A DNA stretch of 64,000 bases from Candidatus Aenigmatarchaeota archaeon (GCA_003553905.1 PWEA01000005.1:7915-71914); one strand, 5' to 3'. Shown: positions 30,034-48,071, counted from the first letter of the stretch. Notes: a model not told the origin generated them from the sequence alone. Program-made: numbers and translations.

Positions 30034-30048
30034 GGGTGAAAAAATACC

Positions 30049-31653: not shown

Positions 31654-31665
31654 AAGGTGATATAA

Positions 31666-32279: not shown

Positions 32280-33074
32280 TTAGTCTGTTGGAATAGCTGA
32301 CATCCCGTCCTTTTCGTCTTGATTTTCCTCCAAAGAATCACCACCTACCATAGCCAAAGCCTTGTTTCTGTTGTCTCTCGATAGTTTTGGTAAAAACTCC
32401 TTAAATGCTCTTTCCAAAGAACTAACTCTGGATTCGATGCTCTCGACCCGAGAAAGTGCTTCATCTGCATCTTCTTCTATGTCTCTTATCTTTTTACGCT
32501 GGCTTTTTTCAAGATCTTCGACCTTGTCTTTGACGCTTTCAAGTTCTGTGTTTATATCACCGATATCATCGATAAGACCACTTAACTCGAGTTCTACGTT
32601 ATCCCACTTTTCATCGATTATCTCTTCCACAAGTATTTCGAGTTCTATCTGATCTTCATCTGACATCCCTGTCTTGTTACTGGACGGCTGTGAAAAATCG
32701 CTGTCTTCCTGATTTTCTTCCTGATTTGTAAAAGATGATGACGGCTGGGGTGCAATGAAGTTTTTATCGGAGATACCATCACCTGAACTACTGTAATCGG
32801 CTGGAATTTCTTCGTCGAAGTCCGGTGAACCACGAGCAACCCTTTCTTCTCCGGAGAAGCTTGAAACCTTGTTTTTGAGTACTTTGTTCATACTCCTCTC
32901 TATCTCATCGTTTGGATAGCCCTTGGCCTTGAGTTCATCGATTATCTCCATCTCAGAATATCCTCTCGAAGCAAGTCTCCTGACCTCTCCTGTAGGAGAC
33001 CCACCCCCAGAAGAATCTAAACTATCACTCCTCTCACTACCTCCGTCGGTGTTATTACCCAAACCAAGAACCAT
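32280..33074 (-). CDS. Acidic coiled-coil protein with small N-terminal helical (UBA-like?) module
   Basis: RRLASRGYSEMEIIDELKAKGYPNDEIERSMNKV, then a low-complexity acidic linker and a C-terminal heptad coiled coil. Divergent from the pilus ATPase operon. Confidence 0.5.
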   Translation of the reverse strand: MVLGLGNNTDGGSERSDSLDSSGGGSPTGEVRRLASRGYSEMEIIDELKAKGYPNDEIERSMNKVLKNKVSSFSGEERVARGSPDFDEEIPADYSSSGDGISDKNFIAPQPSSSFTNQEENQEDSDFSQPSSNKTGMSDEDQIELEILVEEIIDEKWDNVELELSGLIDDIGDINTELESVKDKVEDLEKSQRKKIRDIEEDADEALSRVESIESRVSSLERAFKEFLPKLSRDNRNKALAMVGGDSLEENQDEKDGMSAIPTD

Positions 33075-33079
33075 GTTAC

Positions 33080-33481
33080 CTACTTTCTCCTTTGAAACTC
33101 CTCTTTAATAAGTCTTTTTACTTCTTCTTCGGTAAGAAACTCCGTCTCGAGGGGAGAAAAAAGATCTACGAAGCTTTTCACCTCTTCGAACTCGCCTCTG
33201 CGGGGAACGTCCTCCAGTCTTTCCTTGATCTTGGGTATTTTGTTTTCTACCTTCATTATCCTCATTAGAAGTTCGTCCAGTCCGTCCTTTACCTTTTCTA
33301 TGTCCTCGACTTCCTTCTTTTCTAGATCCATCAACCGATCTTCTATAGACTTAAGGTTCGATTCCATGGAGTTACTTCTTTTCTCCACATCTCTGATACG
33401 TCTGGAATTTCCTTTAACACGGTCCAAAAGCTCCCGTACAATATCCCTGAGACCCGAATCATCCGCCTCACCGAAAGCCAT
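33080..33481 (-). CDS. Coiled-coil protein
   Basis: 133 aa, almost entirely heptad-like K/E/R-rich helix. Confidence 0.5.
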   Translation of the reverse strand: MAFGEADDSGLRDIVRELLDRVKGNSRRIRDVEKRSNSMESNLKSIEDRLMDLEKKEVEDIEKVKDGLDELLMRIMKVENKIPKIKERLEDVPRRGEFEEVKSFVDLFSPLETEFLTEEEVKRLIKEEFQRRK

Positions 33482-33578: not shown

Positions 33579-35861
33579 GTGGTTCAAATGCCATGTGATT
33601 ACGAATACAACCAAAAGGAAAATAAAATAGAAGTAAACTGCTCTGGATGCATCTACGGAAGTAGTGTAGCTGACTACGAGGAGTGTATGGCGAACACAAT
33701 CGATAAAATTCTTGAAGTAAAAGGAGTAGAATCGATTGTATTCAAAAACAGCCGTGAACACGAGTATCCGTATGAGCAGACAAAGCTCCTTGTAGAGATA
33801 GCCCAGGTTCTTAAGGATCTGACCAAAGACAAGGGTCTAAGGAAACTAAAGAAGCTAGATGTACCGGGCTGCAACAAATATTTCCGGGAAAAATATTCGG
33901 AGCTACAGAATATAATCCTCGAAGAACTGAGCAAGGACCCAATAGGTACGTACATACATCTCAAAAGAAAGATAAGGCATCTCAAGATCCAATTAAAGGA
34001 AAATAAGGGTGGTTCACAGAACGAGTGCAGAGAAAAGTACATGAACAAAATACTTATACCAATAAAGGACGAGATCGAGAACACGGGAATGATACAGGGG
34101 GTTAAAAACCAACTTTCCGGATATCGACCAGGCAGGAGAGACGCCTACAGAGAGCTTTTTTACCCTTCTGTACGACCAAACTTCATGCGGACAAAATACA
34201 TGAGACAAGCCCCCGAAGAAGGTAAGAAGGTAGAACATTATGATGTAGGAACTTCTGATGTAGATATATACAGACTGCCTGAAGAAACCAGGCCTCTATA
34301 CCACTTTTCCCCTCCCGAGTTCAAACTCGAGGAGGAAGAATATAAGATACTAGACGAGGCTCAGAGATATATCAGCGAGCATAGACCCGAAACTACCGAG
34401 TTTGCAGAGTCGAAGAGAACCAGGGAAGTTTTCACATCAATATGCAGGGACCTGGTGAAAGACATAGCGGATAATAAGAAAACTGTACTGGAAACCGATC
34501 AGGTCGAAAGACTCACAACCATACTAGGTAGATATACAGGTGGTTTGGGGATACTTGAAGCACTCCTGGAGGACAAAAGAATCCAAGACATATACATAAA
34601 CTCACCAATAGGAAACAAACCGATCTTCGTCAACCACGAAAAATATGGAGAATGCAAAACAAATATAATACCCACCCAAGACGATGCAGAAAGCTGGGCA
34701 ACAAAACTAAGACTTTCGAGTGGAAGACCATTGGACGAAGCCAATCCGGTTCTTGATGCATCCATAGAGGTACCCGGAGGAAGTGCAAGGATAACGGTCA
34801 TAGCTCCCACGCTTTCACCTGAAGGTATTGGTTTTGCTATAAGAAGACACAGAGAAGATCCATGGACATATCCACTGTACTTGAGACCGGATATAAACTA
34901 TATAAATCCACTTTTTGCAGGTCTCATGAGCTTCATAATCGATGGTGGACGTACGTTCCTCGTTGGGGGTGGAAGGGGTTCTGGAAAAACATCACTTCTC
35001 GGAGCCTCGATGCTTGAAATGAAGAGAGACTGGAGGATACTTACAGCAGAGGATACATTAGAGCTACCAGTCGAAAGGCTCAAAAGGCTTGACTACGATG
35101 CACAGAGATTAAAGTCAAGGTCTGTTATAACCCAGGTAGAAACCGAACTTCCTGCGTCGGAAGCAATACGAACGGCCCTTCGTCTGGGTGATTCAGCACT
35201 AGTTATAGGTGAAGTAAGGAGCACGGAAGCAAAGGCCCTCTACGAAGCCATGCGTATAGGAGCGATGGCTAAAACGGTCGCCGGTACTATACATGGTGAA
35301 TCAGCATACGGTCTTTTCGACCGTGTTGTAAACGACCTCGGAGTCCCAAAGACATCTTTCAAAGCTACAGACATCGTAGTTATATGCAACAGGATAAAGA
35401 GCGCATCCGGTCTCGAGGAAATAAGAAGAGTAACAAGTGTTACTGAAGTAAGAAAACACTGGTCCGATGATCCCAGGGCAGAGGATGGATTTGTTCCTCT
35501 TATGAAATATTCGGCAGAAGATGACGAGTTAAAACCGACCGACACTCTACTAAACGGTGAGTCAGAGGTTCTGAATAAGATATCTTCACAGGTCAAGGAC
35601 TGGGCAGGAAGGTGGGATAGGGTCTGGGAAAATATAGAGCTCAGGGCTAAGGTTAAAAAAGCCATAACCGACTATGCACTCGAAACAGGTGAAGAAGATC
35701 TAATGGAAGCCCCGTTTGTTGTCAAGAGCAACAGCAAGTTCCGCCTTATCATGGACGAGGTAAAAAAGAAGACAGGTTACATAGACCCGGATGAAACCTT
35801 CGATAAGTGGGAACAATGGCTCAAGGATCAGATAAAGACTGGTGAATTTAGGAATGTTTAA
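33579..35861 (+). CDS. Type II/IV secretion-system ATPase (FlaI/TadA/PilB/VirB11 family) with extended N-terminal region
   Basis: Walker A GGGRGSGKTSLLGA, Asp box ILTAEDTLEL, GEVRSTEA and a TIHGE His box. 760 aa from the GTG at 33579; the alternative ATG at 33588 would be leaderless. Confidence 0.8.
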   Translation: MVQMPCDYEYNQKENKIEVNCSGCIYGSSVADYEECMANTIDKILEVKGVESIVFKNSREHEYPYEQTKLLVEIAQVLKDLTKDKGLRKLKKLDVPGCNKYFREKYSELQNIILEELSKDPIGTYIHLKRKIRHLKIQLKENKGGSQNECREKYMNKILIPIKDEIENTGMIQGVKNQLSGYRPGRRDAYRELFYPSVRPNFMRTKYMRQAPEEGKKVEHYDVGTSDVDIYRLPEETRPLYHFSPPEFKLEEEEYKILDEAQRYISEHRPETTEFAESKRTREVFTSICRDLVKDIADNKKTVLETDQVERLTTILGRYTGGLGILEALLEDKRIQDIYINSPIGNKPIFVNHEKYGECKTNIIPTQDDAESWATKLRLSSGRPLDEANPVLDASIEVPGGSARITVIAPTLSPEGIGFAIRRHREDPWTYPLYLRPDINYINPLFAGLMSFIIDGGRTFLVGGGRGSGKTSLLGASMLEMKRDWRILTAEDTLELPVERLKRLDYDAQRLKSRSVITQVETELPASEAIRTALRLGDSALVIGEVRSTEAKALYEAMRIGAMAKTVAGTIHGESAYGLFDRVVNDLGVPKTSFKATDIVVICNRIKSASGLEEIRRVTSVTEVRKHWSDDPRAEDGFVPLMKYSAEDDELKPTDTLLNGESEVLNKISSQVKDWAGRWDRVWENIELRAKVKKAITDYALETGEEDLMEAPFVVKSNSKFRLIMDEVKKKTGYIDPDETFDKWEQWLKDQIKTGEFRNV

Positions 35862-37938
35862 GGGCGATAAGGATGACCGCAAAGAAGAGATAAAAAGACT
35901 TCTGGAAAGAAGAAACGAAGGACTCCGGATGCCCGAAAGCAGAAAAAGAACATTCACATCGAGGGAGTACGAAACATTCTTAAAAGAGGAACAGAAGCAG
36001 AGGAAACTATCACTTTACGAAAAACTATGTAATATTGCCGAAAATATAATAGTCGTAGAGCCGTCCGATGAAAAGAGGGAGGAGATGGAACGGTCAATAG
36101 ATATGACCTACATGAATATAACCCCTGAGGGGGCCTACTCTCTAGCCATTCTGTCCGGTATCGGCATCTTTGTCACTGCGATATTACTTATGGTACTGGG
36201 TCTTGCCTCGATAATATTTGGTCTCCTCATGTTTATACTGGGTGGTGTATCAATATACCTCCTCGCAGAATATCCAAATTCGGAGGCCAGGCTTTTCCGG
36301 GTCAAAGCTGCCGATCAGATTATGCTTGCTGTGATATACATGGTCATATACATGCGTACTTCTCCTAACCTCGAAGGTGCAGTTAAATTCACCGCCAAGC
36401 ATCTAGGAGAGCCCCTTTCACTTGATTTCAAAAAACTGCTCTGGGATGTAGAAACCCGAAACTATGTTTCGATGAGGGAAGCCCTTTCCGCCTACCTGGA
36501 AAAGTGGGAAGACAACAAAACCTTCGTGGAAGCTATACAGATAATAGAAGACTCGATGCAACAAGCCGGAGAAAAAAGAAAAAGAATGCTCAACGAAGCA
36601 ATAAACACGATGATGACAGGCTCAAGAGAGATGATGAAAAACTACTCAAACAAACTCGAACTTCCTATACTCGTAATACACGCCCTCGGTATAATGCTTC
36701 CTATCATGGTTCTGATAATGTTCCCTATAATAATGCTTATGCTTGAAGAAACTATCCGGCCTGCGTTTCTCATTCTGGGCTACAATGTTATACTACCGCT
36801 CATAATATATCTAACAGGAAAAAGAACGCTGGAGTACAGGCCGATGGGATTTTCTGAGCCTGACATATCAAAACATCCGGACCACATTCCCTCTGGAATG
36901 ATAAACATCGCAGGTAAGGAGATAAAGATATGGCCTATATCTGTTCTTCTGTCGGTTCCTGTGATAATTACCGGTATCTATCTGGTTAACTTCTACGCAG
37001 GTACAGATATATCAACTCAGCTCTACACGTCAATAATCATAACCATCGGAATAGCACTGGGTCCTTCGAGCTACTTCTACCTCGACTCCAGCGCTAAGCT
37101 CAAGATAAGGAAGGAGGTGAAGGATATCGAGGATGAATTTTCGGAGTCTCTTTTCTCACTGGGTAATATACTCAAGCTGGGTAAGCCAATGGAGAGGGCC
37201 ATGGAAGAAGCTGCTGTAAAAAATAAGGATATGGACATATCGAAGATGTTCGATATAGTCGTAAACAATATCAAAAAGGGTGGGATGAACATCAGGAAGG
37301 CTTTTTTCGATGATGAATACGGTGCAGTGTGGCATTATCCTTCGACACTCATAATATCCGTCATGAAAATCGTCATAGATGCGACAAAAAAGGGTTCCGA
37401 TATTGTCTCTAGGTCAACTATATCAATATCAAAGTATCTACAACAGCTCGATGAGATAGAAGAAGACCTGAAAAATATGCTCTCTTCGGAGACTACTTCT
37501 ATGCAGTTCCTGGGAACGTTTCTTGGACCCTTTGTGGCAGGTGTTTCTGTGGCCATGGCTGCTATAATGATATCAATATTCCAAGGTGTGGGTGGTTCAT
37601 TGGATGCACTGGCAGGAACCGGAACCTCACCCGGTGTTGGAGGTCTAGGTGGGATGGGACTCAATGAAGGCCTAGTAGGTGGATGGGGTTCAGCAGAAAA
37701 TATGATACCCATATCATGGATACAGGTTGTCGTAGGTCTCTATGCTATCCAGACATCCTACCTTCTTTCTATGCTAACATCCGGCATAGAAAACGGTCCC
37801 GGTGACCAAATAAAGAAAAGACAGTCCGCAGCAATTATGATAATGATAGGTGTAATAGTCTACGGTGTTTCAATTGCTGTGGTTTGGCAAATATTCGGAG
37901 GGCAGATATCTGAACTTCTAGCAGCAACCATAAACTGA
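35842..37938 (+). CDS. FlaJ/TadC-like polytopic membrane platform protein
   Basis: 698 aa. Cytoplasmic helical domains alternate with clusters of TM helices, the two-T2SS_F-domain layout. Overlaps the ATPase by 20 nt, suggesting translational coupling. Confidence 0.7.
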   Translation: MNLGMFKGDKDDRKEEIKRLLERRNEGLRMPESRKRTFTSREYETFLKEEQKQRKLSLYEKLCNIAENIIVVEPSDEKREEMERSIDMTYMNITPEGAYSLAILSGIGIFVTAILLMVLGLASIIFGLLMFILGGVSIYLLAEYPNSEARLFRVKAADQIMLAVIYMVIYMRTSPNLEGAVKFTAKHLGEPLSLDFKKLLWDVETRNYVSMREALSAYLEKWEDNKTFVEAIQIIEDSMQQAGEKRKRMLNEAINTMMTGSREMMKNYSNKLELPILVIHALGIMLPIMVLIMFPIIMLMLEETIRPAFLILGYNVILPLIIYLTGKRTLEYRPMGFSEPDISKHPDHIPSGMINIAGKEIKIWPISVLLSVPVIITGIYLVNFYAGTDISTQLYTSIIITIGIALGPSSYFYLDSSAKLKIRKEVKDIEDEFSESLFSLGNILKLGKPMERAMEEAAVKNKDMDISKMFDIVVNNIKKGGMNIRKAFFDDEYGAVWHYPSTLIISVMKIVIDATKKGSDIVSRSTISISKYLQQLDEIEEDLKNMLSSETTSMQFLGTFLGPFVAGVSVAMAAIMISIFQGVGGSLDALAGTGTSPGVGGLGGMGLNEGLVGGWGSAENMIPISWIQVVVGLYAIQTSYLLSMLTSGIENGPGDQIKKRQSAAIMIMIGVIVYGVSIAVVWQIFGGQISELLAATIN

Positions 37939-37987: not shown

Positions 37988-39286
37988 ATGAAGCCGCTCA
38001 ACGACCAGATAGGAGCTTCAACTCTTATCATGATAATAGCCGGGGTAATAATAATACTCATAGCGGGCAGCTTTGCAACAGTACTGATGAGTCGTATTGC
38101 CCAAGACGTACTTGGACAAAGTGTCATGTGTGATACTTTTTGTTCGATGCAGTCTACTGTTAAAGAAGTGACAACACTGGATATGATACCAAGCCCCGGA
38201 CTTACCGGTACACTTGGTTATATTGCCATAGGGGCTGTAATAGGTTCGGTGGTACCGGGAATAGGAACCGCGATAGGAGCAGCGATAGGAGCAATTGTTG
38301 GAGTTGCTATAGCCGCAGTACAACATTTTGCAAGCTGGCTGGGAAGAGATGATGAAGATGTTGCAAGAGATCTGGCAATAGACTACTTGGTTCGCCCCGA
38401 AGGCATGGGTTGTTACTGTGGCGTGTCCAATGCCAGAGGAAAGTATATACACTTTCTGACACCCGGTCCTAGCTCAACCAGGCCACATGTGGCCGAGTTC
38501 CATCTAACAGACCAAACTCCGGAAAAACATCTCCAAGAAGAGATAATAGATACAGATGGAAACACTATATTCAAACACGGTGGTTATGGCCAAAAAAGTA
38601 ACTGTGAAGATGAACTTAGTAAAATAGATGAACTTGACAACGGTGAATACTTAGTCGAACTCGATATATATCCAGGGTGCATAATACTATCAACGACCGA
38701 TGACAACTGTGCAATATGGGCATTCAATGAAACCTTTGCAATAACCAATGAAGAAGGAAAGTCCATAAGGGAACAGGCTGAAGAACAGGATAAAATAATA
38801 TTCGCTAGCACGATAAGGTCCGATGACCCCGTAAACAGCCTGGGTATCGCAGAAGAGATAGAGGCAAGTGGCAGACACGAGTCCCAGAGGATGCTCCTCG
38901 AGCATTACGAAGAAGGTATACACCCATTCCAAGTTCACGTCCCTGTAGTTTGTAAATCTGAAGAAAGAACTGAAAGGCGTGTCCAGGATCCACTTGACAG
39001 GGCATGTAGAGAACAGTGCCATGACGGAAACGCACTTCTATGGGCTTCTAGGTGTTTCGAAGAACCAGAAGATGCCGGGGAAACCTACTATTCACTGGAA
39101 GAAGATTTTCTTCCAGAAGAATATGATGACACCAGAGACTTATGCCCTATGGAAGACGAAGACAACGGAGATGAAGACGGGGGGGAAGATGAAAACAACA
39201 ACGAAGATCGCGGTTATCCCTTCTGTCTCTGTAACACTCCTCGAAGTTATTCATGGGAACTGGACGAAGAATACGCAGAAATATAA
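37988..39286 (+). CDS. Pilin-like protein with Cys-rich acidic extracellular domain (family 1, paralog A)
   Basis: N-terminal hydrophobic helix. Motifs shared with family-1 paralogs: C.TFCSMQ, GMGCYCGV, YIHF, HLTDQTP, DGNTIF, SQRMLL, VVCKS, CREQC, LCP, PFCLC, SWELDEEY. An extra Gly-zipper hydrophobic segment (GAVIGSVVPGIGTAIGAAIGAIVGVAIAAV) is unique to this copy. Confidence 0.65.
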   Translation: MKPLNDQIGASTLIMIIAGVIIILIAGSFATVLMSRIAQDVLGQSVMCDTFCSMQSTVKEVTTLDMIPSPGLTGTLGYIAIGAVIGSVVPGIGTAIGAAIGAIVGVAIAAVQHFASWLGRDDEDVARDLAIDYLVRPEGMGCYCGVSNARGKYIHFLTPGPSSTRPHVAEFHLTDQTPEKHLQEEIIDTDGNTIFKHGGYGQKSNCEDELSKIDELDNGEYLVELDIYPGCIILSTTDDNCAIWAFNETFAITNEEGKSIREQAEEQDKIIFASTIRSDDPVNSLGIAEEIEASGRHESQRMLLEHYEEGIHPFQVHVPVVCKSEERTERRVQDPLDRACREQCHDGNALLWASRCFEEPEDAGETYYSLEEDFLPEEYDDTRDLCPMEDEDNGDEDGGEDENNNEDRGYPFCLCNTPRSYSWELDEEYAEI

Positions 39287-39307
39287 TATCTTGAATTTGT
39301 GATGTAA

Positions 39308-40408
39308 ATGATTGACGAAAAAGGTGGTTCCTTATTACTCATAATAGTTGTAGGTATAATATTATCCCTGATCGTTGGTTCTTTGATGACCGGTGCATTT
39401 AGTGTGGTGGTGAGAACCGTAATCGGAACCGACCTGTCGTGTCCTACATTCTGTGCAGTTCAAGCAGACATAGAGGAGTATAGCATGGCAGATATAATGC
39501 TACCATCGATTCTACCATTCATAGAGGAAAGCTCTGAGGCAACGGCTCATAAAATAGCAGACTGGATAATACAACCGGAAGGGCTTGGCTGTTACTGCGG
39601 CGTCAAAGCAAGAAGTGGAAGATACATCCACTTCCATACAGGTTCACCTGGAGAAAGGTACATAAGAGAGCTTCACTTGACGGACCAAGATCCACATATA
39701 CATCTAGACTATCATGTCAGTGATTCCGATGGAAACACGTTGTTCGACCACAGCTTCGACAAGAGCAGCTGTGAGGAAGACATAAGTAACATAGAAGAAG
39801 TACAGTACTATCAAACCGTTGGCTGTGTAATCGTGGTTAACTCCGAGGGAGGGTACTGCTCTATACATGTAATAGGAGAAGGTTCAGTTATAGAAAACAA
39901 CATAGGTGAAAGCATACACGATCAGGTTGAAATAAAGGAAACATTGACGACAAACTATGAAGACAACGATCCCATTTCATTTTTTAAAATCGGCGACAGA
40001 TACAGCGTACCTCGATTTGCATACGGGACAGGAGATGTCCTGACCTACACGATAGGAACCCAGCCCTACCAGCACGATTCCCAACGAATGCTCCTCCGGG
40101 ACTACGACGAATACCTAGGAGCTAAGTTCGCTCTCTATGCTCCTGTTGTCTGTAGGGCATCAACAAGAGAAGGACAAGATACTCAGACAGAACTCGATGA
40201 AAAATGTAGAAAGCAATGTAAGGAAGACGATAAGATTTTCTTCTCTTCTGCATGCCAAGATATCCCCAGGGAAGGTTATGACATGCTACGTGACGAATAC
40301 CGCGAAGACACTCTCTGTGAAAAGGATGACGAGGGCCCATACTGCAGATGTGTGCACGAGAAACGATACTACTGGGAGGTAGACGAAGATTATTCGAGAG
40401 AAGAATGA
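39308..40408 (+). CDS. Class III signal-peptide (type IV pilin-like) protein with Cys-rich domain (family 1, paralog B)
   Basis: MIDEKG then GSLLLIIVVGIILSLIVGSL. Shared motifs SCPTFCAVQADIEEYS, GLGCYCGV, YIHF, HLTDQDP, DGNTLF, SQRMLL, VVCRAS, CRKQC, LCEK, PYCRC, YYWEVDEDY. Confidence 0.7.
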   Translation: MIDEKGGSLLLIIVVGIILSLIVGSLMTGAFSVVVRTVIGTDLSCPTFCAVQADIEEYSMADIMLPSILPFIEESSEATAHKIADWIIQPEGLGCYCGVKARSGRYIHFHTGSPGERYIRELHLTDQDPHIHLDYHVSDSDGNTLFDHSFDKSSCEEDISNIEEVQYYQTVGCVIVVNSEGGYCSIHVIGEGSVIENNIGESIHDQVEIKETLTTNYEDNDPISFFKIGDRYSVPRFAYGTGDVLTYTIGTQPYQHDSQRMLLRDYDEYLGAKFALYAPVVCRASTREGQDTQTELDEKCRKQCKEDDKIFFSSACQDIPREGYDMLRDEYREDTLCEKDDEGPYCRCVHEKRYYWEVDEDYSREE

Positions 40409-40447
40409 AAAAGTTAAAAACTAAACGAAAACCTATTAAATGATAAT

Positions 40448-40561
40448 ATGGAAGTAAGTATGTCTGTCTTGCTCTGGGTGATTGTAGCCTTTGCTCTGTT
40501 TGTATTTGTAGTAATATTTACCGGTATGTTTTTCGCCGACACGTTTGGAATTTTAATATAA
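40448..40561 (+). CDS. Possible 37-aa hydrophobic micro-protein
   Basis: MEVSMSVLLWVIVAFALFVFVVIFTGMFFADTFGILI is a single TM helix lying between two pilin genes, below the ORF-track cut-off. Confidence 0.2.
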   Translation: MEVSMSVLLWVIVAFALFVFVVIFTGMFFADTFGILI

Positions 40562-40572
40562 TCAAGGATACT

Positions 40573-41850
40573 ATGATCGATCAAAAGGGAGCATCAGTAA
40601 AGGCACTCTTCGTAATCATAATTGTAATGGTGGGTGCATGGGTTTTAATACAAAGTATTGGTCCTATAACCAAAGCTGCCATGGGAACCGAAGTATCCTG
40701 TCCGCTTTTCTGTGATATACAGTCAGGTATAGAAGACTACTCGAGATGGGCATGGTGGCCGGGGTGGCTTGGAGGAAGTGTAAGCTGGTCCGATATATTC
40801 AAAAATGAACTAAGAAGAAACATGGTAGCACCTAAATCAATGGGATGTTACTGTGGTGTACAGGAAGAAAGAGGAAAGTTTATCCATTTCCAGGGGAGTA
40901 CCAGTAGTATACGCGAATTCCACATGACGAATCAGGATCCATTGGTACATCTTAGCCTTGAGGCCGGTCCATTTGACCACAGGCCTACTTCATCGCAAAT
41001 TCGTAATATGTGTCGATCCATCATAGAAGATTACGGAGAAGAGTTCAGTCCACCTGTATACGATCAAAGCGATCTCAATAGAGTTCAAGCATGCATGATT
41101 GTTTCAGAATCACCGGGTTGTGCAATATGGAGATTTGAAGAGGGTTTTGTCATTAGGAGAGACTCTGATGATTCTATATGGGAACAGGCACAGGAACAGG
41201 GAAAAGACATAGGCTTTTTTTCCTTTAATAGAGACGAAGACCCTGTTTCGGATCTAAGCATAGGTGAAACTGTGTATGTATCGGGATCAAAGGACCCCTC
41301 CCAACGGATGTTACTCCAAAAATACGAAAGCGGCGATCAAGATTTCAATCTCTCTGCATCCGTGGTATGTAAAAGTGTTAGAATGGATGAATCTATGCCC
41401 ACAAACGAACTAGACAGGGCTTGCAACGAATACTGCTCGGATGAAAATCTTTTCTTCATGAATTCTAACTGCCTAGAGGAGAGGAGAGGTGGTTATGATA
41501 TCCTTCCAGAAGAATACATAGAAAATGGGAGGGATAAACTCTGCCCTGAAGGAAGAGAACTTCCCTTCTGTCTCTGTGCAGGAGAAAAGGACTACTACTG
41601 GGAAACATACTGGGAAGATTTCTACACAGTAACGGTAGAAACCCAAGGTAGTGGAAATGTGGACATAAGCCCCGACCTGGACGAGTATCACGAAGATCAG
41701 GAAGTATCATTGGAAGCAGAAGCGTACAACGATTGGGAATTTAGCCATTGGGAAGGAGATCATCCACATGGACAAAAAGAAGATGCAGAGATAACGATCA
41801 CGGTAGATGGAGATATGGAAGTAACTGCAGTATTCGAATCGACATCATAG
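40573..41850 (+). CDS. Class III signal-peptide protein with Cys-rich domain (family 1, paralog C) and C-terminal InlB B-repeat-like domain
   Basis: MIDQKG then ASVKALFVIIIVMVGAWVLI. Shared motifs SCPLFCDIQSGIEDYS, MGCYCGV, FIHF, HMTNQDP, SQRMLL, VVCKS, CNEYC, LCPEG, PFCLC, YYWE. C-terminus YTVTVETQGSGNVDISPDLDEYHEDQEVSLEAEAYNDWEFSHWEGD..ITITVDGDMEVTAVFE fits the divergent InlB B-repeat pattern. Confidence 0.7.
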   Translation: MIDQKGASVKALFVIIIVMVGAWVLIQSIGPITKAAMGTEVSCPLFCDIQSGIEDYSRWAWWPGWLGGSVSWSDIFKNELRRNMVAPKSMGCYCGVQEERGKFIHFQGSTSSIREFHMTNQDPLVHLSLEAGPFDHRPTSSQIRNMCRSIIEDYGEEFSPPVYDQSDLNRVQACMIVSESPGCAIWRFEEGFVIRRDSDDSIWEQAQEQGKDIGFFSFNRDEDPVSDLSIGETVYVSGSKDPSQRMLLQKYESGDQDFNLSASVVCKSVRMDESMPTNELDRACNEYCSDENLFFMNSNCLEERRGGYDILPEEYIENGRDKLCPEGRELPFCLCAGEKDYYWETYWEDFYTVTVETQGSGNVDISPDLDEYHEDQEVSLEAEAYNDWEFSHWEGDHPHGQKEDAEITITVDGDMEVTAVFESTS

Positions 41851-41910: not shown

Positions 41911-42093
41911 ATGAATACGGATTCAAAAAGCCTCTTTTCCAGAGGTGAAATAAGTATACAGGCCCTGGTAGTGATAATTCTAATGTTGATAGGGATCATA
42001 ATCATTGTTATAATATCATCGGGCGTCGGTGACTTTGGAGGAGATGCGTCTTCGACTATAATGGAATATTTAGCAGATGCTATAGGTGCATAA
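41911..42093 (+). CDS. Short pilin-like protein (60 aa)
   Basis: SLFSRG then EISIQALVVIILMLIGIIIIVI. Almost entirely the signal/helix segment, so a candidate structural pilin. Confidence 0.5.
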   Translation: MNTDSKSLFSRGEISIQALVVIILMLIGIIIIVIISSGVGDFGGDASSTIMEYLADAIGA

Positions 42094-42097
42094 AGTT

Positions 42098-42250
42098 ATG
42101 GTACATAATAAAAAGGGGTTCATAAGTTTCGCTATGATTGTGATCATAGTTCTTATAGCTCTAACGGTCGGTATTCTGCTTATACACACCTTTTGGGGAG
42201 GCGGTGAAGGATTGTTAAACCTACTCATCCAAAGGCTTCAACAGGTATAG
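42098..42250 (+). CDS. Short class III signal-peptide pilin (50 aa, not in ORF track)
   Basis: MVHNKKG then FISFAMIVIIVLIALTVGILLIHTFWGGGEGLLNLLIQRLQQV. Textbook archaeal prepilin N-terminus. ATG at 42098, TAG at 42248..42250. Confidence 0.5.
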   Translation: MVHNKKGFISFAMIVIIVLIALTVGILLIHTFWGGGEGLLNLLIQRLQQV

Positions 42251-42259
42251 GTATAAAAT

Positions 42260-42406
42260 ATGTCTACATTTAGCGACACATTAACTGTTTTCGAAAACAA
42301 TACAAAGATAATATTTGCCTTAGTGGTGTTTGCTCTGCTTATAGGCATACTTTACTACACGATAGGTCCTATAATAGATACATTACTGGGGGCTATAGGT
42401 TATTGA
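42260..42406 (+). CDS. Small membrane protein (48 aa, not in ORF track)
   Basis: MSTFSDTLTVFENNTKIIFALVVFALLIGILYYTIGPIIDTLLGAIGY. Single TM helix, no KG cleavage motif. Confidence 0.35.
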   Translation: MSTFSDTLTVFENNTKIIFALVVFALLIGILYYTIGPIIDTLLGAIGY

Positions 42407-42407: not shown

Positions 42408-43124
42408 ATGAACGTAATCAACAAAAAAGGTTCAAGATCACAGAGTGAGTTCATATTTCTTGCAATAAAGGCAGTGATAGGTATCTTGGTTATAGGAATT
42501 GTTGCCTTGAGTGTTAGGGGCATGGAAACAGGCTGCAGTACACATGACGAAAATCCAACGGCATGTATAAGAAATACCGAATGCAGGCCTGCAGTTAGAA
42601 GAAAGAGAAACATATTCACGTTCTATATTGATCCTGCTCGTACCATAGACCTAATCTACCATACAAAAATAACCGGTGATATAGAATGCCGAGACGCGAT
42701 AAGGACTCCTAACAACAGATACCACGCCGCAGAGGATGCTCAGTGTGTATGTCCTGTTGGATGGGAAGTAATTTTAGACAAGGATGATCAGTACTACGGA
42801 GTCTGCAGACTACCAGGAACTAACGACTATCACCCATGCGAGTATCCACCAGACGGCGAACAGCAAGAAGCAGAATTCAAAGACATGTGTGAAGATGGAG
42901 ACAGATACCACGGAGAAGTCTGGATCGACGGAACAGATGAGGAAGCTCCAAATATGTGCTGCGATGATGGAGATACAAAGGAATGTGACTCCGATAACAT
43001 AGACGAAGAATGTGGCGATTTGGTTTGTATTGAAATAGAGGTCGAGGACGAAGACGGAGAAGAGGAAGAAACCACTTTCTGGATAGAAGAAGAAAGCGTA
43101 CCTGATATAGAATACTTCCTTTAA
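42408..43124 (+). CDS. Class III signal-peptide protein with Cys-rich acidic domain (family 2, paralog A)
   Basis: MNVINKKG then SRSQSEFIFLAIKAVIGILVIGIVAL. Shared with the next gene: ETGCSTHDENPTACIRNTECRPAV, GDIECRDAIRTPNNRYHAAEDAQCVCPVGWE, YYGVC, YHGEVWIDG..MCCDDGDTKECD. Confidence 0.7.
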   Translation: MNVINKKGSRSQSEFIFLAIKAVIGILVIGIVALSVRGMETGCSTHDENPTACIRNTECRPAVRRKRNIFTFYIDPARTIDLIYHTKITGDIECRDAIRTPNNRYHAAEDAQCVCPVGWEVILDKDDQYYGVCRLPGTNDYHPCEYPPDGEQQEAEFKDMCEDGDRYHGEVWIDGTDEEAPNMCCDDGDTKECDSDNIDEECGDLVCIEIEVEDEDGEEEETTFWIEEESVPDIEYFL

Positions 43125-43151: not shown

Positions 43152-43802
43152 ATGTTTTCAAAAAAAGGTACTGCTAAATCGCAGGAAGAAACACTTTGGT
43201 TTATAATCAAGATAGCTATAATGTTGATAGGAATGGTAGTTTTGATTGTTTCTTTACTCGAGATGGAGGCAGGCTGCAGTAGACACGATGAAAATCCATC
43301 GGCATGTGTAAGCGATGAAAACTGCAGACCCGCAGTTAAAACATTTGACCTAGGATGGGGTTTATATGGTTTCTCTCAAATCGAAGTAGTGGGTGAGATC
43401 GAATGCCGGGAATCTGTGAGAAAACCCAATACAAGATATCATGCAGCCCAAGATGGAAAATGCGTATGCCCTGGTTTCTGGAACGAAATCATGGACAGGG
43501 ACCATGACTACTTTGGTGTGTGTTATACTGAATATGACGGAGAAGAAATGTACTATCCATGCCAGTACGGCCTGGATGTTCAGGCTGAGGAAATAAAAGA
43601 CAGATGCGATACCGACAACGGTCTTAGAATGCACGGAGAAGTATGGGGCTCCGGTTGGAATGTTCCAGATAGATGCTGCGACGATGGTGAAGTAAAGAAA
43701 TGTGGGATAGATAAAAGAGGTGAAACTTGTGCAGACCATACCTGTAAATCCGGTCCAGCAATGCATGATGTTGTTATAGTCAACTACTATTGGCAGCCAT
43801 AA
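43152..43802 (+). CDS. Class III signal-peptide protein with Cys-rich domain (family 2, paralog B)
   Basis: MFSKKG then TAKSQEETLWFIIKIAIMLIGMVVLIV. EAGCSRHDENPSACVSDENCRPAV, GEIECRESVRKPNTRYHAAQDGKCVCPGFWNE, YFGVC, MHGEVWGSG..RCCDDGEVKKCG. Confidence 0.7.
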   Translation: MFSKKGTAKSQEETLWFIIKIAIMLIGMVVLIVSLLEMEAGCSRHDENPSACVSDENCRPAVKTFDLGWGLYGFSQIEVVGEIECRESVRKPNTRYHAAQDGKCVCPGFWNEIMDRDHDYFGVCYTEYDGEEMYYPCQYGLDVQAEEIKDRCDTDNGLRMHGEVWGSGWNVPDRCCDDGEVKKCGIDKRGETCADHTCKSGPAMHDVVIVNYYWQP

Positions 43803-43847
43803 ACCACATTTACACCTTTCAAAAAGATTTAAACGAACACGACAAAG

Positions 43848-44270
43848 TTGTATATGATGAACACCCCAGCAAAGGGCATAGGCGTAGGAAAGTCTCTTAT
43901 GTTAATATTGATACTGGTAGTACTCATATTTACAACGGTCGTAATAGGTGACATCTTTACATCTGTTCTTGGTATGGGTATAGGAGATGAGTTCCACCTC
44001 ACAATGGGTGAGTTGTCTGTATCCTACACTACATCTAGCTCTTTTCAGGAAAAAACAGAAATAGAAGAAAATCTTCCGATGGCCTGCGAAAGAGTTGTAT
44101 TTAGAAACAACACACTAAAGGCTTATCTAGAACATGATGAATTCTACTTCGTTTCCTACACTACACAGGAAATGGATGAAGATTTCGAGGTAGAATGTGA
44201 TTCCTTTGGTGGGGTGAAGTTTATTGACGGGAGGATTGAAGCCTCTAGCCCGGTTGATGGAACATTGTGA
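43848..44270 (+). CDS. Class III signal-peptide (pilin-like) protein
   Basis: MNTPAKG then IGVGKSLMLILILVVLIFTTVVIG. 140 aa. Confidence 0.6.
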   Translation: MYMMNTPAKGIGVGKSLMLILILVVLIFTTVVIGDIFTSVLGMGIGDEFHLTMGELSVSYTTSSSFQEKTEIEENLPMACERVVFRNNTLKAYLEHDEFYFVSYTTQEMDEDFEVECDSFGGVKFIDGRIEASSPVDGTL

Positions 44271-45169
44271 TTATGATGACAAGGATAGATAACAAAGGAA
44301 CAACCGGAGGAGACTATATATGGTATATACTATTTGTGATAGTAACAATAACCTATCTATATGCCTTTTACGCAATATTCATGGCCGGTTCAACAGTAGA
44401 TGTTGAGGGAATTGAAAGAACTCAAGGAAGACTACAGGGTTCTGCTGCTTATACAAGATTGTTATCATATCCCAACTTCGTCTCGACGGGAGAGATCGGT
44501 GTATTCGATAAATCATCTCTCGATTCGAAGAACGGTACAGAGAAGCTAGAGGAACTCTACAACCCATCACTCTGGATTTATATTGAGATAGAAAACACCG
44601 AAAATGATGATAAGTATATATTCGGTACACCAGGACCAAAGAAGGCAACCGAAGAATGGATAGCTGAGGACGGGTATATGAGTACCTGGGACGATGAAGA
44701 TGAAATGAGCTTTTGGGATCATATGTCCGCCAAATATAGTACAATGGTAAACATAGACACCGGCGACGGCTTCGATCTAGCTAAACTACATTTTTACTTC
44801 CGACAAATACCCGATCCTGTATTGAGCCTGAAAAGGGGTGCCCATATAGCCAAGGAGGAAGGAAGCCATACAGTCACATTGTTTCACCCAACGTCAGGCT
44901 GTAAAATTTATGCACAAGATAGATATGGGAGAGCTCAGTGTTTCGTCCGCGAAGATCCTTTTGTAATAGATACAAGTCAATCTGATAAAATAAAGGACGA
45001 CTTCGGTGAATACATGCATCTGAAAGGCATAGAACTGAAGGCATTCGACGATGATGAGGAAGAGTTCGAGATAGACCCGCCCGGTAGGTTTACAGAAGGA
45101 AAGACGAGGTTAGAACTAGCCCACACCGGCGGCAAAACGGTAGAGTATGAAATAGTCGATAGTTGGTAA
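44267..45169 (+). CDS. Class III signal-peptide (pilin-like) protein
   Basis: MTRIDNKG then TTGGDYIWYILFVIVTITYLYAFYAIFMAG. 300-aa acidic globular domain. 4-nt overlap with the upstream gene. Confidence 0.6.
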   Translation: MIMMTRIDNKGTTGGDYIWYILFVIVTITYLYAFYAIFMAGSTVDVEGIERTQGRLQGSAAYTRLLSYPNFVSTGEIGVFDKSSLDSKNGTEKLEELYNPSLWIYIEIENTENDDKYIFGTPGPKKATEEWIAEDGYMSTWDDEDEMSFWDHMSAKYSTMVNIDTGDGFDLAKLHFYFRQIPDPVLSLKRGAHIAKEEGSHTVTLFHPTSGCKIYAQDRYGRAQCFVREDPFVIDTSQSDKIKDDFGEYMHLKGIELKAFDDDEEEFEIDPPGRFTEGKTRLELAHTGGKTVEYEIVDSW

Positions 45170-45170
45170 A

Positions 45171-45701
45171 ATGAAAAAAAGAATCGGTAAAAAGGGTGGC
45201 TTTATGATCTTGCTAGCTACGCTTATATTCACCGCCGTGTTCTTAATTACTTTGTTTATAGTCGGTCCCTTCGTTGGAGGAGCACAGATGGAAATAGAGG
45301 TAATGTCAGAAGACCCTGCCAGATTCAGTATAGAGAAAAATACGCTTCTAAGAACCAATGAAACAAAAAGAAAACTCATGGCTTTCGGAGAAGGAGACGG
45401 GTCGGTAGACGAATCTATCGCCAAGACAAGCGACAAATTTGGAGAAGCTGATTCGGGCTCTCATATACTGCTTTTCCAGTTCGAAGGGGACGATGACATA
45501 GAAAGGGTGGGTTTCCTTTGTTTAGACGACTGCGGGCATATAAGTGGATATGATGAAGAGTTTAAAGCAATTCTACAAAATTCAAAAGTAATAGCACCTA
45601 GACCCATAATGCTCCCGGAAGGTGGAATGGGATCCTCATATTCGATCTATTATGATCCAGATGAAGTCGCATCAGATATTATGGACGGTGTGATGTACTG
45701 A
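45171..45701 (+). CDS. Class III signal-peptide (pilin-like) protein
   Basis: MKKRIGKKG then GFMILLATLIFTAVFLITLFIVG. 176 aa. Confidence 0.6.
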   Translation: MKKRIGKKGGFMILLATLIFTAVFLITLFIVGPFVGGAQMEIEVMSEDPARFSIEKNTLLRTNETKRKLMAFGEGDGSVDESIAKTSDKFGEADSGSHILLFQFEGDDDIERVGFLCLDDCGHISGYDEEFKAILQNSKVIAPRPIMLPEGGMGSSYSIYYDPDEVASDIMDGVMY

Positions 45702-45708
45702 TGATAAA

Positions 45709-46272
45709 ATGTTAGGAGATAAAGGAATAAAGGTTACGATTGTGGTCTTAGCAGCCGTACTGATAGCCATCTCTCTGGCAACTACAGTAATTGTAGGAGT
45801 ACTATCATACCAAGGTCAGGAGCAGTCCTGGTTCGGGCAGAGTGAAAGAGTTACAGCAAAGGTTCAGTTTGACCATGCTCTGGAAGCTATAGAAGATTCG
45901 TTTTTGTTAGGTATATACTGGGGTATACGGGAATCAGGTAGCGACTGGGAAGACGCAAGTGAATCCCTTGAAGAAGAAATAGAGGAGAAAATAGATGATT
46001 ATCTGACTAAGTTAGAGGGTTTCTACAGAGGCGAATACGATACGCAACCGTTCCGACTCGAAACGATGATACAGATAAATGACGTCGATATAGAAGTAGA
46101 TTTGGATGAGGACGAGGAAACCATAGATAGGGTAGAATTATCAGGTAATCTGACTTCTTACAGGAACCAGCCCTCGATAACAATATCCGATGATTTCTAC
46201 TTCAGTGAAAACTTTAACGAAGACTATTCAGACCTCTATGACATGGCTCGTAATCCATTAGAAAATATGTAA
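45709..46272 (+). CDS. Class III signal-peptide (pilin-like) protein
   Basis: MLGDKG then IKVTIVVLAAVLIAISLATTVIVGV. 187 aa, acidic. Confidence 0.6.
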   Translation: MLGDKGIKVTIVVLAAVLIAISLATTVIVGVLSYQGQEQSWFGQSERVTAKVQFDHALEAIEDSFLLGIYWGIRESGSDWEDASESLEEEIEEKIDDYLTKLEGFYRGEYDTQPFRLETMIQINDVDIEVDLDEDEETIDRVELSGNLTSYRNQPSITISDDFYFSENFNEDYSDLYDMARNPLENM

Positions 46273-46301
46273 ATTTTATAAGAAAGGGGGAGATATTTAA
46301 C

Positions 46302-47288
46302 ATGAAGATGAATCAAAAGGGATCCAAGTCTATGATGGCTTTAGTAGTTCTTATAATTCTAGGTGTTTTGGTAATATTTGTTTTTTCCACAACATCGGGA
46401 TCTTTTTTGGAGATTTCAGAAGGTCTTATGGACATAGGCGAGGAGGAGGCAAGAAGGGTTCATAGGAAGTTCAAATACCCTATTTTAAAACACGAGCTCC
46501 CGGAAGAAGAATTTCCCGGAGAGGGGTCAGGACGGATTGTGACCTCATGTAAATCAATAGGTTCAGAAGGTGAATATCAGCTCCAAGACTCTATAAGATG
46601 TTCAGATCACGAACCAATCCGAGAGTTCAGCGGGACGCTGGACGGTCGTGGTCACAGTATATATGGTTTAGATGAGCCACTATTTGAAACGATATCTTCC
46701 TCGGGAACCGTAAAAAATATTAGAATCTCGGAAGTAGATATATTTGAGGAAGGTCCTGCAGGTGGTCTTTCTGTAGAAAACCAAGGAACCATCAAAAGAA
46801 TCCGTATTTCCGGGATGGTTCAAGGCGAAAGTAACGTTGGCGGTCTTGTTGGAACAAACAGTGGAGAGATACGGAAATCTTCCTCCACGGCAAATGTAGA
46901 TGGAGATCAAAATGTAGGAGTACTGGTAGGACAACATACCTCCGGTTCCGTAACAAATTCTTACACGGTCGGCTCTGTAGAAGGTATATCAAATGTAGGG
47001 GGACTAATAGGATCAGGAAGTGGACAGGTAGATAAAACATACGCAGCTAGTTTTGTAACCGGACTCACAAACAAACAAGGCTTGGTCGGTTCCGGTTCTG
47101 CTGGGGCAGTGACAAACTCCTTCTGGAGTACTGACACATCCGGAATTCTTCCTGGAGATATCTCTGGAAGTGTTATAGGAACACCGAAAGTTGACGAAGC
47201 CATGGAAGACAAGGCAACATTTGTTTCCACAAGAACGGAAGGCCTCGTAGATCCCTGGGACTTCGATGAAATATGGACTATGGGATAA
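46302..47288 (+). CDS. Class III signal-peptide protein with GLUG-like repeat domain
   Basis: MKMNQKG then SKSMMALVVLIILGVLVIFVF. Central repeats NVGGLVGTNSGEI..NVGVLVGQHTSGSVTNSYTVGSVEGISNVGGLIGSGSGQV..GLVGSGSAGAVTNSFW fit the GLUG motif (GGLVG.N.G.I.NSYATG.V.G). Confidence 0.65.
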   Translation: MKMNQKGSKSMMALVVLIILGVLVIFVFSTTSGSFLEISEGLMDIGEEEARRVHRKFKYPILKHELPEEEFPGEGSGRIVTSCKSIGSEGEYQLQDSIRCSDHEPIREFSGTLDGRGHSIYGLDEPLFETISSSGTVKNIRISEVDIFEEGPAGGLSVENQGTIKRIRISGMVQGESNVGGLVGTNSGEIRKSSSTANVDGDQNVGVLVGQHTSGSVTNSYTVGSVEGISNVGGLIGSGSGQVDKTYAASFVTGLTNKQGLVGSGSAGAVTNSFWSTDTSGILPGDISGSVIGTPKVDEAMEDKATFVSTRTEGLVDPWDFDEIWTMG

Positions 47289-47290
47289 AA

Positions 47291-47452
47291 ATGAACTACG
47301 CTCTTCGAACCAGAGGACTACAGTTTAATATCCTTGTTTATATAATACTTGGAATACTTTTGATAGGTGTGATTGCTGCTCTTGCCCTGACTACAGAGGG
47401 GCTCTTCGAAGGATTTTTTGACCTAATGAAAGAACTGATACTTTCAGGGTGA
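47291..47452 (+). CDS. Short class III signal-peptide pilin (53 aa, not in ORF track)
   Basis: MNYALRTRG then LQFNILVYIILGILLIGVIAALAL. ATG 47291, TGA 47450..47452. Confidence 0.45.
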   Translation: MNYALRTRGLQFNILVYIILGILLIGVIAALALTTEGLFEGFFDLMKELILSG

Positions 47453-47497
47453 GGACAGACCGTAAGTTTTAAATCCAATAGGTAACAACCTTTAACC

Positions 47498-47755
47498 ATG
47501 AAAATCAAGTCCGGGAAGAGATTAAAGCCTCTACATCTCGGAGCTCTGGTTTTGAGTTTGATAGTGATCCTATCCATCATAGTTTTTAGTCTGGACGTAA
47601 CAGAAGGACCAGGTGAGGAAGATGAGATGGGCAGGTCTTGTGTAGGATACCTACAGAGGAATTGTTGCAGTAACCCCGGAGCAGTTCGATGCCAAGAATT
47701 CGAAAACGAAATATGGACACACCAAGAAGATCCATTTGATGTATGTTGTGAATAA
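47498..47755 (+). CDS. Small TM-anchored Cys-rich protein (family 3)
   Basis: N-terminal helix LHLGALVLSLIVILSIIVF, then SCVGYLQRNCCSNPGAVRCQEFE..DVCCE, a C..CC..C..CC pattern shared with the next gene. Confidence 0.5.
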   Translation: MKIKSGKRLKPLHLGALVLSLIVILSIIVFSLDVTEGPGEEDEMGRSCVGYLQRNCCSNPGAVRCQEFENEIWTHQEDPFDVCCE

Positions 47756-47758
47756 ACT

Positions 47759-48070: not shown

Positions 48071-48071
48071 A

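Follow-up and report, generated by a model that had tools for sequence, protein, structure and literature searches.

Three paralogous cysteine-rich, pilin-like proteins encoded beside a type IV filament motor in Candidatus Aenigmatarchaeota: candidate minor-pilin or tip subunits

We focus here on three tandem genes, A, B and C, at 37988-39286, 39308-40408 and 40573-41850 of a 64,000-nucleotide stretch of DNA (the window) from a Candidatus Aenigmatarchaeota archaeon; all three lie on the + strand, as do the features below unless marked (-), and their coordinates agree with those in an initial annotation of the stretch. Their products are paralogs in which a cysteine-rich head of no characterised family is carried on a pilin-like N-terminal helix, and they are encoded directly after an assembly ATPase and a platform protein of type IV filament type. 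We propose, with confidence about evenly divided for and against, that all three are exported and serve the filament machine encoded upstream as minor-pilin or tip subunits, none of them redundant. The proposal builds on their paralogy, their N-terminal anatomy, their linkage to the motor genes, the co-variation of their cysteines, their narrow distribution, the lack of known relatives and their fast divergence under purifying selection. Partner recognition and attachment in DPANN archaea are largely a gap in current understanding, and the locus yields a few concrete candidate surface proteins that are linked to a pilus motor; the trio is conserved together, and its rate of evolution is two to three times that of the machinery. 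With its invariant His/Glu cluster and a predicted, unusual pair of cystine staples from helix to strand, the head would also repay structure determination.

Three tandem paralogs with a common head

The three proteins (432, 366 and 425 amino acids (aa), respectively) align end to end in MAFFT and match one another over nearly their full length in BLASTP (A-B, E = 1e-58, 29% identity; A-C, 3e-50, 34%; B-C, 3e-51, 31%), and the tandem paralogy proposed in the initial annotation is borne out. Most of the collinear motifs listed there are present in all three, including G(L/M)GCYCGV, (Y/F)IHF, H(L/M)T(D/N)Q.P, SQRMLL, C(R/N)(E/K)(Q/Y)C, LC(P/E) and P(F/Y)C(L/R)C. The list failed at four places: A has MCDTFC..Q..VKEVT in place of SCP.FC..Q..IE(E/D)YS and ends in YSWE instead of YYWE, B reads VVCRA where the motif is VVC(K/R)S, and C has lost DGNT(L/I)F by deletion. 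In A, a leader (MKPLNDQIG) and hydrophobic helix are followed by CxxxC, a Gly/Ala-rich hydrophobic insertion, the Cys/His core and a six-Cys C-terminal module. B is the shortest of the three and the one that was modelled, and C carries a Trp-rich linker (AWWPGWLGGSVSWSD) and an additional C-terminal domain.

The insertion in A (aa ~69-113; 38192-38326) is hairpin-like, with GxxxG repeats around a V-P-G turn and a best 19-aa Kyte-Doolittle mean of 2.17. It had been described as a Gly-zipper segment; its hydrophobic, Gly/Ala-rich composition and its GxxxG spacing are indeed like that family, but the Pfam match of aa 80-110 (PF13488 and relatives; Gly-zipper_Omp) stays below threshold (E 0.0019; 18.5 vs 25 bits). 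The insertion is poorly conserved even in the closest ortholog, being the most divergent part of the gene in the comparison with the related locus L006 (61-68% nucleotide identity, with an indel). The InlB B-repeat-like domain proposed for the C-terminus of C (aa 351-424; 41623-41844) is confirmed above Pfam's curated cut-off (PF18998, Flg_new_2, 'Divergent InlB B-repeat'; E 6.9e-9, 36.0 bits vs a gathering cut-off of 23.6) and has no counterpart in A or B. It is an add-on outside the family core: only C of this genome and C of L006 have it, and other members of the C clade end in a different domain. In L004_C (L004, 11328-12677), P0017 and P0018, the place of the B-repeat is taken by another conserved domain of ~100 aa with the pattern ..ISFY.DFE..P.EV.V.., ending ..F(S/T)F.T.., for which Pfam gave no match. 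This indicates domain swapping at the C-terminus of the C paralogs, as judged from sequence.

The three proteins had also been described as acidic. Their isoelectric points (pI) are indeed 4.2-4.5, but nearly all proteins of the locus, cytoplasmic enzymes included, have a pI of 4-5, and the non-halophilic family members of locus L012 have pI values of 8.7 and 6.4, together with 5-7 N-x-S/T sequons for N-glycosylation. Acidity is thus a trait of the halophilic lineage and is rejected as a feature of the family. A halophilic lineage with an acid-shifted proteome is described inside Aenigmatarchaeota (PMC13195033); the acidic signature seen here fits such a lineage, and the metagenome-assembled genomes (MAGs) that carry the family may belong to the named family Haloaenigmatarchaeaceae.

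A pilin-like N-terminus beside a type IV filament motor

Each paralog begins with a short polar leader that ends in K-G (I-G in A) and is followed by ~20 hydrophobic residues, an arrangement that resembles the archaeal class III (prepilin) signal. With a slash at the putative cleavage site, the contexts are MIDEKG/GSLLLIIVVG in B, MIDQKG/ASVKALFVIIIV in C and ..DQIG/ASTLIMIIAG in A; the L006 ortholog of A has K at position -2, where A itself has Ile. K-G plus a hydrophobic stretch is found in 23 of the 25 family members with a complete N-terminus. A scan for [KR]G at residues 1-16 and, after it, an 18-residue stretch of mean hydropathy >=2.0 retrieved 18 of the 383 open reading frames (ORFs) of the window, 13 of them on the + strand at 39.3-48.3 kb; A and a 300-aa ORF just fail this rule. 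In the AlphaFold2 (AF2) model of B, residues 6-54 are helical (H6-38, H40-54), and the long N-terminal helix (aa 7-54; 39326-39469), which ends in C45-x3-C49, carries a globular head, giving the 'lollipop' shape of pilins.

The three genes belong to a tightly packed, operon-like block on the + strand that runs from 33579 to ~48323 and opens with the motor. The type IV filament assembly ATPase (33579-35861; 760 aa) scores with Pfam T2SSE (E 1e-15) and with the NCBIfam FlaI (E 2.2e-40) and TadA-family (E 9.7e-33) models, both NCBIfam scores lying below the equivalog cut-offs; it also scores with the bindosome BasE model (E 1.4e-14). The start of the polytopic TadC/FlaJ-like platform protein (35842-37938; 698 aa) overlaps the ATPase stop by 20 nt. 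Its match to Pfam T2SSF is weak (E 0.12), and that of its orthologs is weak or faint too. The order ATPase, platform, A/B/C family is kept in L004, L006, L009, L012, L013 and L014, with one to three family copies each, and the family members lie directly 3' of the platform gene in all loci but L013, where two of the three copies are further downstream. The leader and hydrophobic stretch, the modelled helix and this conserved position right after the ATPase and platform genes all agree with the earlier description of the proteins as pilin-fused.

The ATPase itself has an N-terminal extension of ~280 aa that starts with a Cys cluster (C6, C21, C24, C36; 33579-33700). Variable N-terminal Cys-rich domains are described for some ATPases of archaeal type IV pili (T4P) (Makarova et al. 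2016, PMC4858521).

An apparently new head fold

The initial annotation had recognised no characterised family in the head, and none emerged from any of four comparisons. Pfam searches with 29 members gave no family match except the B-repeat of C, NCBIfam gave none for the A/B/C family, a profile of the family found nothing among PDB sequences at E<=10, and the head core of the B model had no structural neighbour. With neither sequence nor fold likeness to known domains, the head appears, as far as a model can tell, to be a new fold.

The model was obtained from a 29-sequence alignment, a first run of AF2 on 6 sequences having been unusable (predicted local distance difference test score (pLDDT) 43). 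It has a mean pLDDT of 78.1 and a predicted template modelling score (pTM) of 0.71, with more than 130 residues above 90. The helix (6-54) is followed by a low-confidence linker (55-76), an alpha/beta core (77-290) and a very confident C-terminal module (295-358). The core (39536-40177) contains C95 and C97 (GCYCG), H108, E121-x-H123-x-T125, P129, H132, H148, C155, C173, C184, SQRMLL and C282, all of them in columns that are invariant or near-invariant family-wide. The C-terminal module, with six Cys (40190-40381), is predicted with pLDDT above 90 as one helix and four strands (H295-306, E310-317, E343-349 and E352-358 among them); the helix carries C300-x3-C304, the strands follow with C316, C337 and C346-x-C348, and the last strand reads YYWEV.

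Cysteine pairing

The initial annotation counted at least 10 conserved cysteines and took the domain to be disulfide-stabilised. The count is in fact 14, and none of these varies in A, B or C or among 10 sequences drawn from four genomes. Of the long members, the 21 with an intact N-terminus all carry the 14 Cys, three of them having 16. C45 and C49, conserved to >=90% family-wide, are missing in the fragment P0012, which keeps its other Cys. The six C-terminal Cys are present all or none: eight short members (243-336 aa) lack the whole module, whose place is between the strand 'VVC(K/R)S' and the last strand, 'YYWEV', and seven of these eight have the full set of eight core Cys. C155 and C184 have been lost jointly in P0024; P0020 and P0021 have gained two Cys together, one four residues before C300 (CxxxCxxxC) and one two residues before C346 (CxCxC), which is what a ladder of helix/strand staples predicts. 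The Cys count is even in 33 of 35 tabulated sequences, the exceptions being L013_2 (= P0024), with 7, one of which precedes the K-G site, and P0026, with 11. Homologs retain or lose Cys as pairs or modules, which is the co-variation expected of disulfides and runs against the refuting case named in the initial annotation, in which the Cys positions would fail to co-vary.

The pattern extends to the other exported proteins of the locus. Between 37988 and 48323, all 11 Cys-containing proteins that are predicted to be exported have even counts (14, 14, 14, 14, 14, 2, 2, 2, 2, 6, 6); the counts for the ATPase (9), a pyridoxal phosphate (PLP) enzyme (11) and the platform protein (1) are odd. These even counts point to systematic formation of extracellular disulfides in this organism, as read from sequence.

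In the model, C300 and C304 lie in the predicted helix H295-306 and C346 and C348 in the predicted strand E343-349, both with pLDDT above 90; C45 and C49 lie in H40-54 and C95 and C97 in extended coil just ahead of the first strand. A CxxxC helix joined to a CxC strand is the known cysteine-stabilised alpha/beta framework (PMC5234102). The two such pairs in this family, C45x3C49 with C95xC97 and C300x3C304 with C346xC348, thus suggest two disulfide staples (45-95 and 49-97, or crossed; 300-346 and 304-348), of which the first would link the pilin helix covalently with the head. C155 is predicted to pair with C184, which by elimination would leave C173-C282 and C316-C337. We infer this connectivity from the spacing pattern, the even counts and the co-loss and co-gain of Cys.

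Another view of the same residues, which we regard as decidedly improbable, is that the Cys are ligands of Zn or of Fe-S centres and that A, B and C are metalloproteins, possibly redox-active at the surface. The CxxxC/CxC pairs could build tetrahedral sites together with the conserved His, and a reducing habitat would disfavour disulfides. Cys are, however, gained and lost in twos (C155/C184; the extra pair of P0020 and P0021) and not in fours, the counts are even in almost all members, and the spacing is that of the helix/strand disulfide staple (PMC5234102). Disulfides are therefore the better reading of the sequence pattern. Zn-ribbon and ferredoxin sites, furthermore, use CxxC knuckles or CxxCxxC spacing, unlike the Cys of A, B and C.

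A conserved His/Glu cluster

Apart from the Cys, the head conserves a cluster of His and Glu. H108 and H123 do not vary in any of the 29 sequences; E121, Q127, H132 and H148 are near-invariant, P0025 and P0028 having lost all four jointly. On neighbouring predicted strands (E106-111 and E118-125 in AF2), H108 and E121/H123/T125 fall at alternate positions, so that H108, E121, H123 and T125 could share one face. In sequence and model, the cluster resembles a binding site for metal or ligand, shared by A, B and C.

The cluster is our main reason for retaining a second explanation, somewhat unlikely in our view though by no means negligible, in which A, B and C are surface enzymes or ligand- or metal-binding proteins anchored in the membrane or to a pseudopilus. 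They would use the class III signal for anchoring alone, as the substrates of the Sulfolobus bindosome do, and the cluster would be an active or metal-binding site, acting for example on the envelope of a partner. The invariance of H108 and H123, the joint loss of E121, Q127, H132 and H148, the possible common face and the fact that the conserved site is common to all three paralogs speak for this explanation, as does the score of the ATPase with the BasE model.

Distribution and evolution

The exact A, B and C proteins are present, unnamed, in NCBI, JGI, ENA and Logan assemblies. When GTDB was scanned with one genome for each species, three loci only came up, all in 'Candidatus Aenigmatarchaeota' MAGs from soda-lake sediment (T1Sed10_130, T1Sed10_105 and B1Sed10_69), and a scan of JGI metagenomes found seven, all from two soda-lake sediment datasets. 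A word-indexed homolog search was insensitive, giving 3-5 relatives and missing even the paralogs in the window; an exhaustive HMMER profile scan of 1.84 billion cluster representatives gave 27 proteins at E<=1e-3, and for 18 of these E was <=1e-30. The family was found only in Aenigmatarchaeota-type loci, a narrow distribution that bears on the question, raised in the initial annotation, of whether it is confined to one narrow archaeal lineage. No viral or phage relatives were found in a pattern scan of viral contigs based on alignment A4 or by tblastn against phage genomes, and an origin from a virus or mobile element is rejected.

In a neighbour-joining tree, A, B and C form three separate clades, each with orthologs from several genomes; the triplication is thus old, and every copy has been retained. 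The A-clade orthologs (L006, L004, L008, P0007 and P0016) all have the long G/A-rich linker, and the C clade is conserved in at least six lineages. The linker between CxxxC and CxC is typical of each clade: 71-111 residues, Gly/Ala-rich and hydrophobic in A; a conserved Trp-rich motif in C; short and acidic in B. Copy number is 1 in L009, 2 in L012 and 3 in L004, L006, L013 and L014.

The family diverges faster than the motor. Between the window and L004, identity is 75% for the ATPase and 74% for the platform, as against 43-47% for A, B and C; towards L009, L012 and L013, the platform is 54-58% and the family members 22-31% identical, with the ATPase at 78-85% in L009 and L012 (the L013 ATPase offers 31 aligned residues only). 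Taken over L004, L014 and L009, the ranges are 75-85% for the ATPase, 56-74% for the platform and 22-47% for the family. Against the closest relative, L006, the ratio of nonsynonymous to synonymous substitution rates (dN/dS) is 0.21 for A, 0.16 for B, 0.16 for C and 0.06 for the platform protein; the ATPase yields no ratio, its dS being saturated. The sequences of A, B and C thus clearly indicate purifying selection with relaxed constraint; positive selection is unsupported (dN/dS 0.16-0.21).

Nucleotide identity to L006 is 70-85% over most of the operon. A patch of ~550 bp in A (38400-38950) reaches 94-95%, with a dS of 0.07-0.2 against >1 for the motor genes, and two further, shorter patches (42780-43080 and 43820-43970) reach ~90-92%; the Gly/Ala-rich stretch next to the first (~38000-38290) falls to 61-68%, with an indel. 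The high-identity patches suggest, at the level of sequence, recent recombination between lineages within surface-protein genes.

A proposed role as minor-pilin or tip subunits

The anatomy of the proteins can be put together into the following path. First of all, a class III signal (prepilin) peptidase would remove the short K/I-G leader. Second, the hydrophobic first half of the ~50-residue helix would anchor in the membrane and would later pack in the filament core. Third, the second half of the helix would be stapled to the alpha/beta head by CxxxC/CxC, with the head locked by about seven disulfides and the second staple in the C-terminal module. Finally, the members of the three old clades, with their bulky heads, would most likely act together as non-redundant minor pilins, in a complex for initiation or at the tip, placed at the filament's distal end, where the heads and the B-repeat domain of C would touch a surface or a partner cell. 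An extracellular placement is backed by the InlB B-repeat-type domain of C and by the sequons of the non-halophilic relatives, both of which are sequence features. The initial annotation had proposed minor pilins or tip adhesins, and their fast divergence relative to the motor is consistent with such a role.

One or more of the three could instead be major structural subunits of a thick filament, with the 48-60-aa ORFs that follow C serving as assembly factors and not as pilins. Family genes come first after the motor in every locus, some loci (L009) have a single copy, and in N-terminal anatomy the proteins do not differ from pilins that form filaments. Yet the heads, at 300-400 aa, are to our knowledge much larger than filament-forming archaeal pilins, three distinct orthologous clades are kept side by side, and A has an extra hydrophobic hairpin; smaller candidate pilins, moreover, exist at 41911-42406 and in the ~110-aa ORFs at 60017-60733(-). 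We consider a major structural role improbable. With bulky heads, three distinct paralogs retained and smaller candidate pilins available, a minor-pilin or tip role is the most economical.

Several points weigh against the proposed minor-pilin or tip role. The filament itself is a prediction from genes, no prepilin peptidase (Peptidase_A24-type) was found among the ORFs of >=150 aa in the window, and the Pfam pilin N-terminal models (PF07790, Pilin_N) match none of A, B and C at E<=1 and none of the 29 members at E<=0.01. A has Ile and not Lys or Arg at -2, and its second strongly hydrophobic segment could lead to retention in the membrane rather than to incorporation in a filament. The confidence of the AF2 model is moderate (pLDDT 78, 29 sequences). 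The best-conserved exposed feature appears to be the His/Glu cluster (H108, E121, H123, H132 and H148), which A, B and C share with nearly the whole family and which suggests a common metal, ligand or catalytic site and not a variable binding specificity; similarly, a dN/dS well below 1 gives no sign of diversifying selection. The soda-lake sediment, if reducing, would also disfavour extracellular disulfides.

A bolder form of the tip model, which we put forward as very unlikely indeed, is that A, B and C assemble into a heterotrimer that is membrane-active and caps the pilus of a DPANN cell dependent on a host. The Gly/Ala hairpin of A and the Trp-rich motif of C, which lie just past the N-terminal helix, would insert into the membrane of the partner, and the disulfide-locked heads, with a conserved His/Glu metal site, would engage its envelope. 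If true, the cap would be a device delivered by the pilus, and it would help in opening the bridge between cells by which DPANN archaea are believed to exploit their hosts.

Comparison with known systems

In bacteria, minor pilins form tip or initiation complexes, such as GspI-GspJ-GspK of the type II secretion system (T2SS) and FimU-PilVWX with PilY1 of type IVa pili (T4aP), which are thought to cap the filament and are non-redundant. These resemble A, B and C in that several distinct subunits with the same N-terminal helix are encoded together and at least one has a bulky inserted domain. They differ in two respects. First, the head of A, B and C has no sequence or fold similarity to theirs, GspK included; second, A, B and C are paralogs of one another that share a head fold.

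Among archaea, T4P loci are described that encode Cys-rich components and large signal-peptide proteins, the latter termed 'minor pilin or adhesin' (Makarova et al. 2016, PMC4858521). These large or Cys-rich proteins (PMC4858521; bioRxiv 10.64898/2026.04.22.720090) likewise lie beside a VirB11/FlaI-family ATPase and a TadC-like platform, have multiple conserved Cys that are expected to form disulfides and are proposed to be minor pilins or adhesins. In contrast, A, B and C match no Pfam or NCBIfam model, apart from the B-repeat of C, and the described Cys-rich examples come from Thermoproteales, which include hyperthermophiles, whereas the A/B/C family occurs only in Aenigmatarchaeota-type loci; Aenigmatarchaeota are unmentioned in both papers. 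The kind of protein is thus already known, since Cys-rich minor pilins or adhesins beside an archaeal T4P motor have been described (PMC4858521); new are the family, its apparent fold and its double staple.

A functional parallel is offered by the episymbiotic Saccharibacteria (candidate phyla radiation, CPR), for which a role of type IV pili in host binding has experimental support (PMC9894109, PMC11623550). They too are ultra-small and host-dependent, and by this analogy adhesion to a partner cell would be a plausible role for A, B and C in a DPANN organism. The Saccharibacteria are, however, bacterial, their pilins are unrelated, and their case is an experimental one, whereas for the archaeon lifestyle and role are drawn from the genes. 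The staples recall the CS-alpha-beta framework of defensins and scorpion toxins (PMC5234102) in that a CxxxC helix joins a CxC strand, here twice. The canonical order C1..C2xxxC3..C4..C5xC6 is, however, not kept, as C316 and C337 lie between the two motifs, and the unit is a 300-aa head and not a 40-aa peptide; the likeness does not amount to homology or to membership of the defensin family. The organisms that carry A, B and C are halophilic Aenigmatarchaeota, of which we know no cultured representative.

Neighbouring genes and other observations

Downstream of the platform gene, the operon-like block contains many further small and pilin-like genes. A hydrophobic mini-ORF of 37 aa (40448-40561) lies between B and C; it is called in L001-L005 and shares 73% identity with its counterpart in L006 and 57% with that in L004. 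Three tiny hydrophobic ORFs of 60, 54 and 48 aa (41911-42406) follow C, two of them with (R/K)G and a hydrophobic N-terminus, and two or three ORFs of 47-60 aa occur 3' of the family genes in L004, L006, L009, L012 and L014. These ORFs and the mini-ORF may be helix-only pilins or assembly factors.

Two tandem pilin-like proteins of a second family come next (42408-43124 and 43152-43802; 238 and 216 aa), with 14 Cys each. In hhalign, they match the A/B/C family in the first ~36 residues alone, and their heads are unrelated; they are thus rejected as members of the A/B/C family. Shorter relatives of the second family occupy the equivalent position in L012, L013 and L014. Nine further ORFs (43848-48323) have, for the most part, (K/R)G and a hydrophobic N-terminus; the block contains ~15 ORFs of this type after A, B and C.

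One of these later genes (46302-47288) encodes a 328-aa pilin-like protein with GLUG repeats (Pfam Glug, E 1.2e-6) and the end of the N-terminal region of an IgA1-protease of type M26 (Peptidase_M26_N, E 1.1e-6); L014 has a 734-aa version. From its sequence, it is a further candidate for a surface-exposed subunit of the same system. At 47498-48070, two ORFs (85 and 103 aa) each carry six Cys, CC doublets among them, after a hydrophobic N-terminus and look like miniature Cys-rich pilin-like proteins.

Genes with similar N-termini are also found away from the block. The tandem ~110-aa ORFs at 60017-60343 (-) and 60398-60733 (-), ~12 kb from the motor, start with KG and a hydrophobic stretch (MAAKKGVTLPINMLVILAVAVIVLLA...) and score weakly with Pfam Pilin_N, below threshold (E 0.07 and 0.58); they might be major pilins that stand alone. 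A 228-aa ORF at 8297-8983, starting MKKGISTSVLLAVIAATLLLAGG..., has a class III-signal-like N-terminus at a distance from the locus and no Pfam match.

Upstream of the pilus operon, five consecutive polytopic membrane proteins of 159-200 aa (29479-32268), of which at least the last three are clearly paralogous, have no family match and keep their position in L004, L006 and L014. Just upstream of the ATPase, two divergently transcribed coiled-coil proteins of 264 and 133 aa (32280-33481 (-)) are syntenic in the same three loci; in the larger, a RecX_HTH1-like motif scores close to the Pfam threshold, and both may be regulators or cytoplasmic accessory components.

Elsewhere, the window contains archaeal housekeeping genes, namely those for diphthamide synthase, ribosomal protein L10e, a tRNA synthetase of Asp/Asn type, ThyX, RNase HII, FEN1, and form III RuBisCO, with AMP phosphorylase and an isomerase of e2B2 type. 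At 55681-59556, genes for an isomerase of the IF-2B family, the large subunit of RuBisCO and a phosphorylase of glycosyltransferase family 3 with PYNP_C stand in a row; they are unrelated to A, B and C and presumably represent the archaeal AMP salvage pathway.

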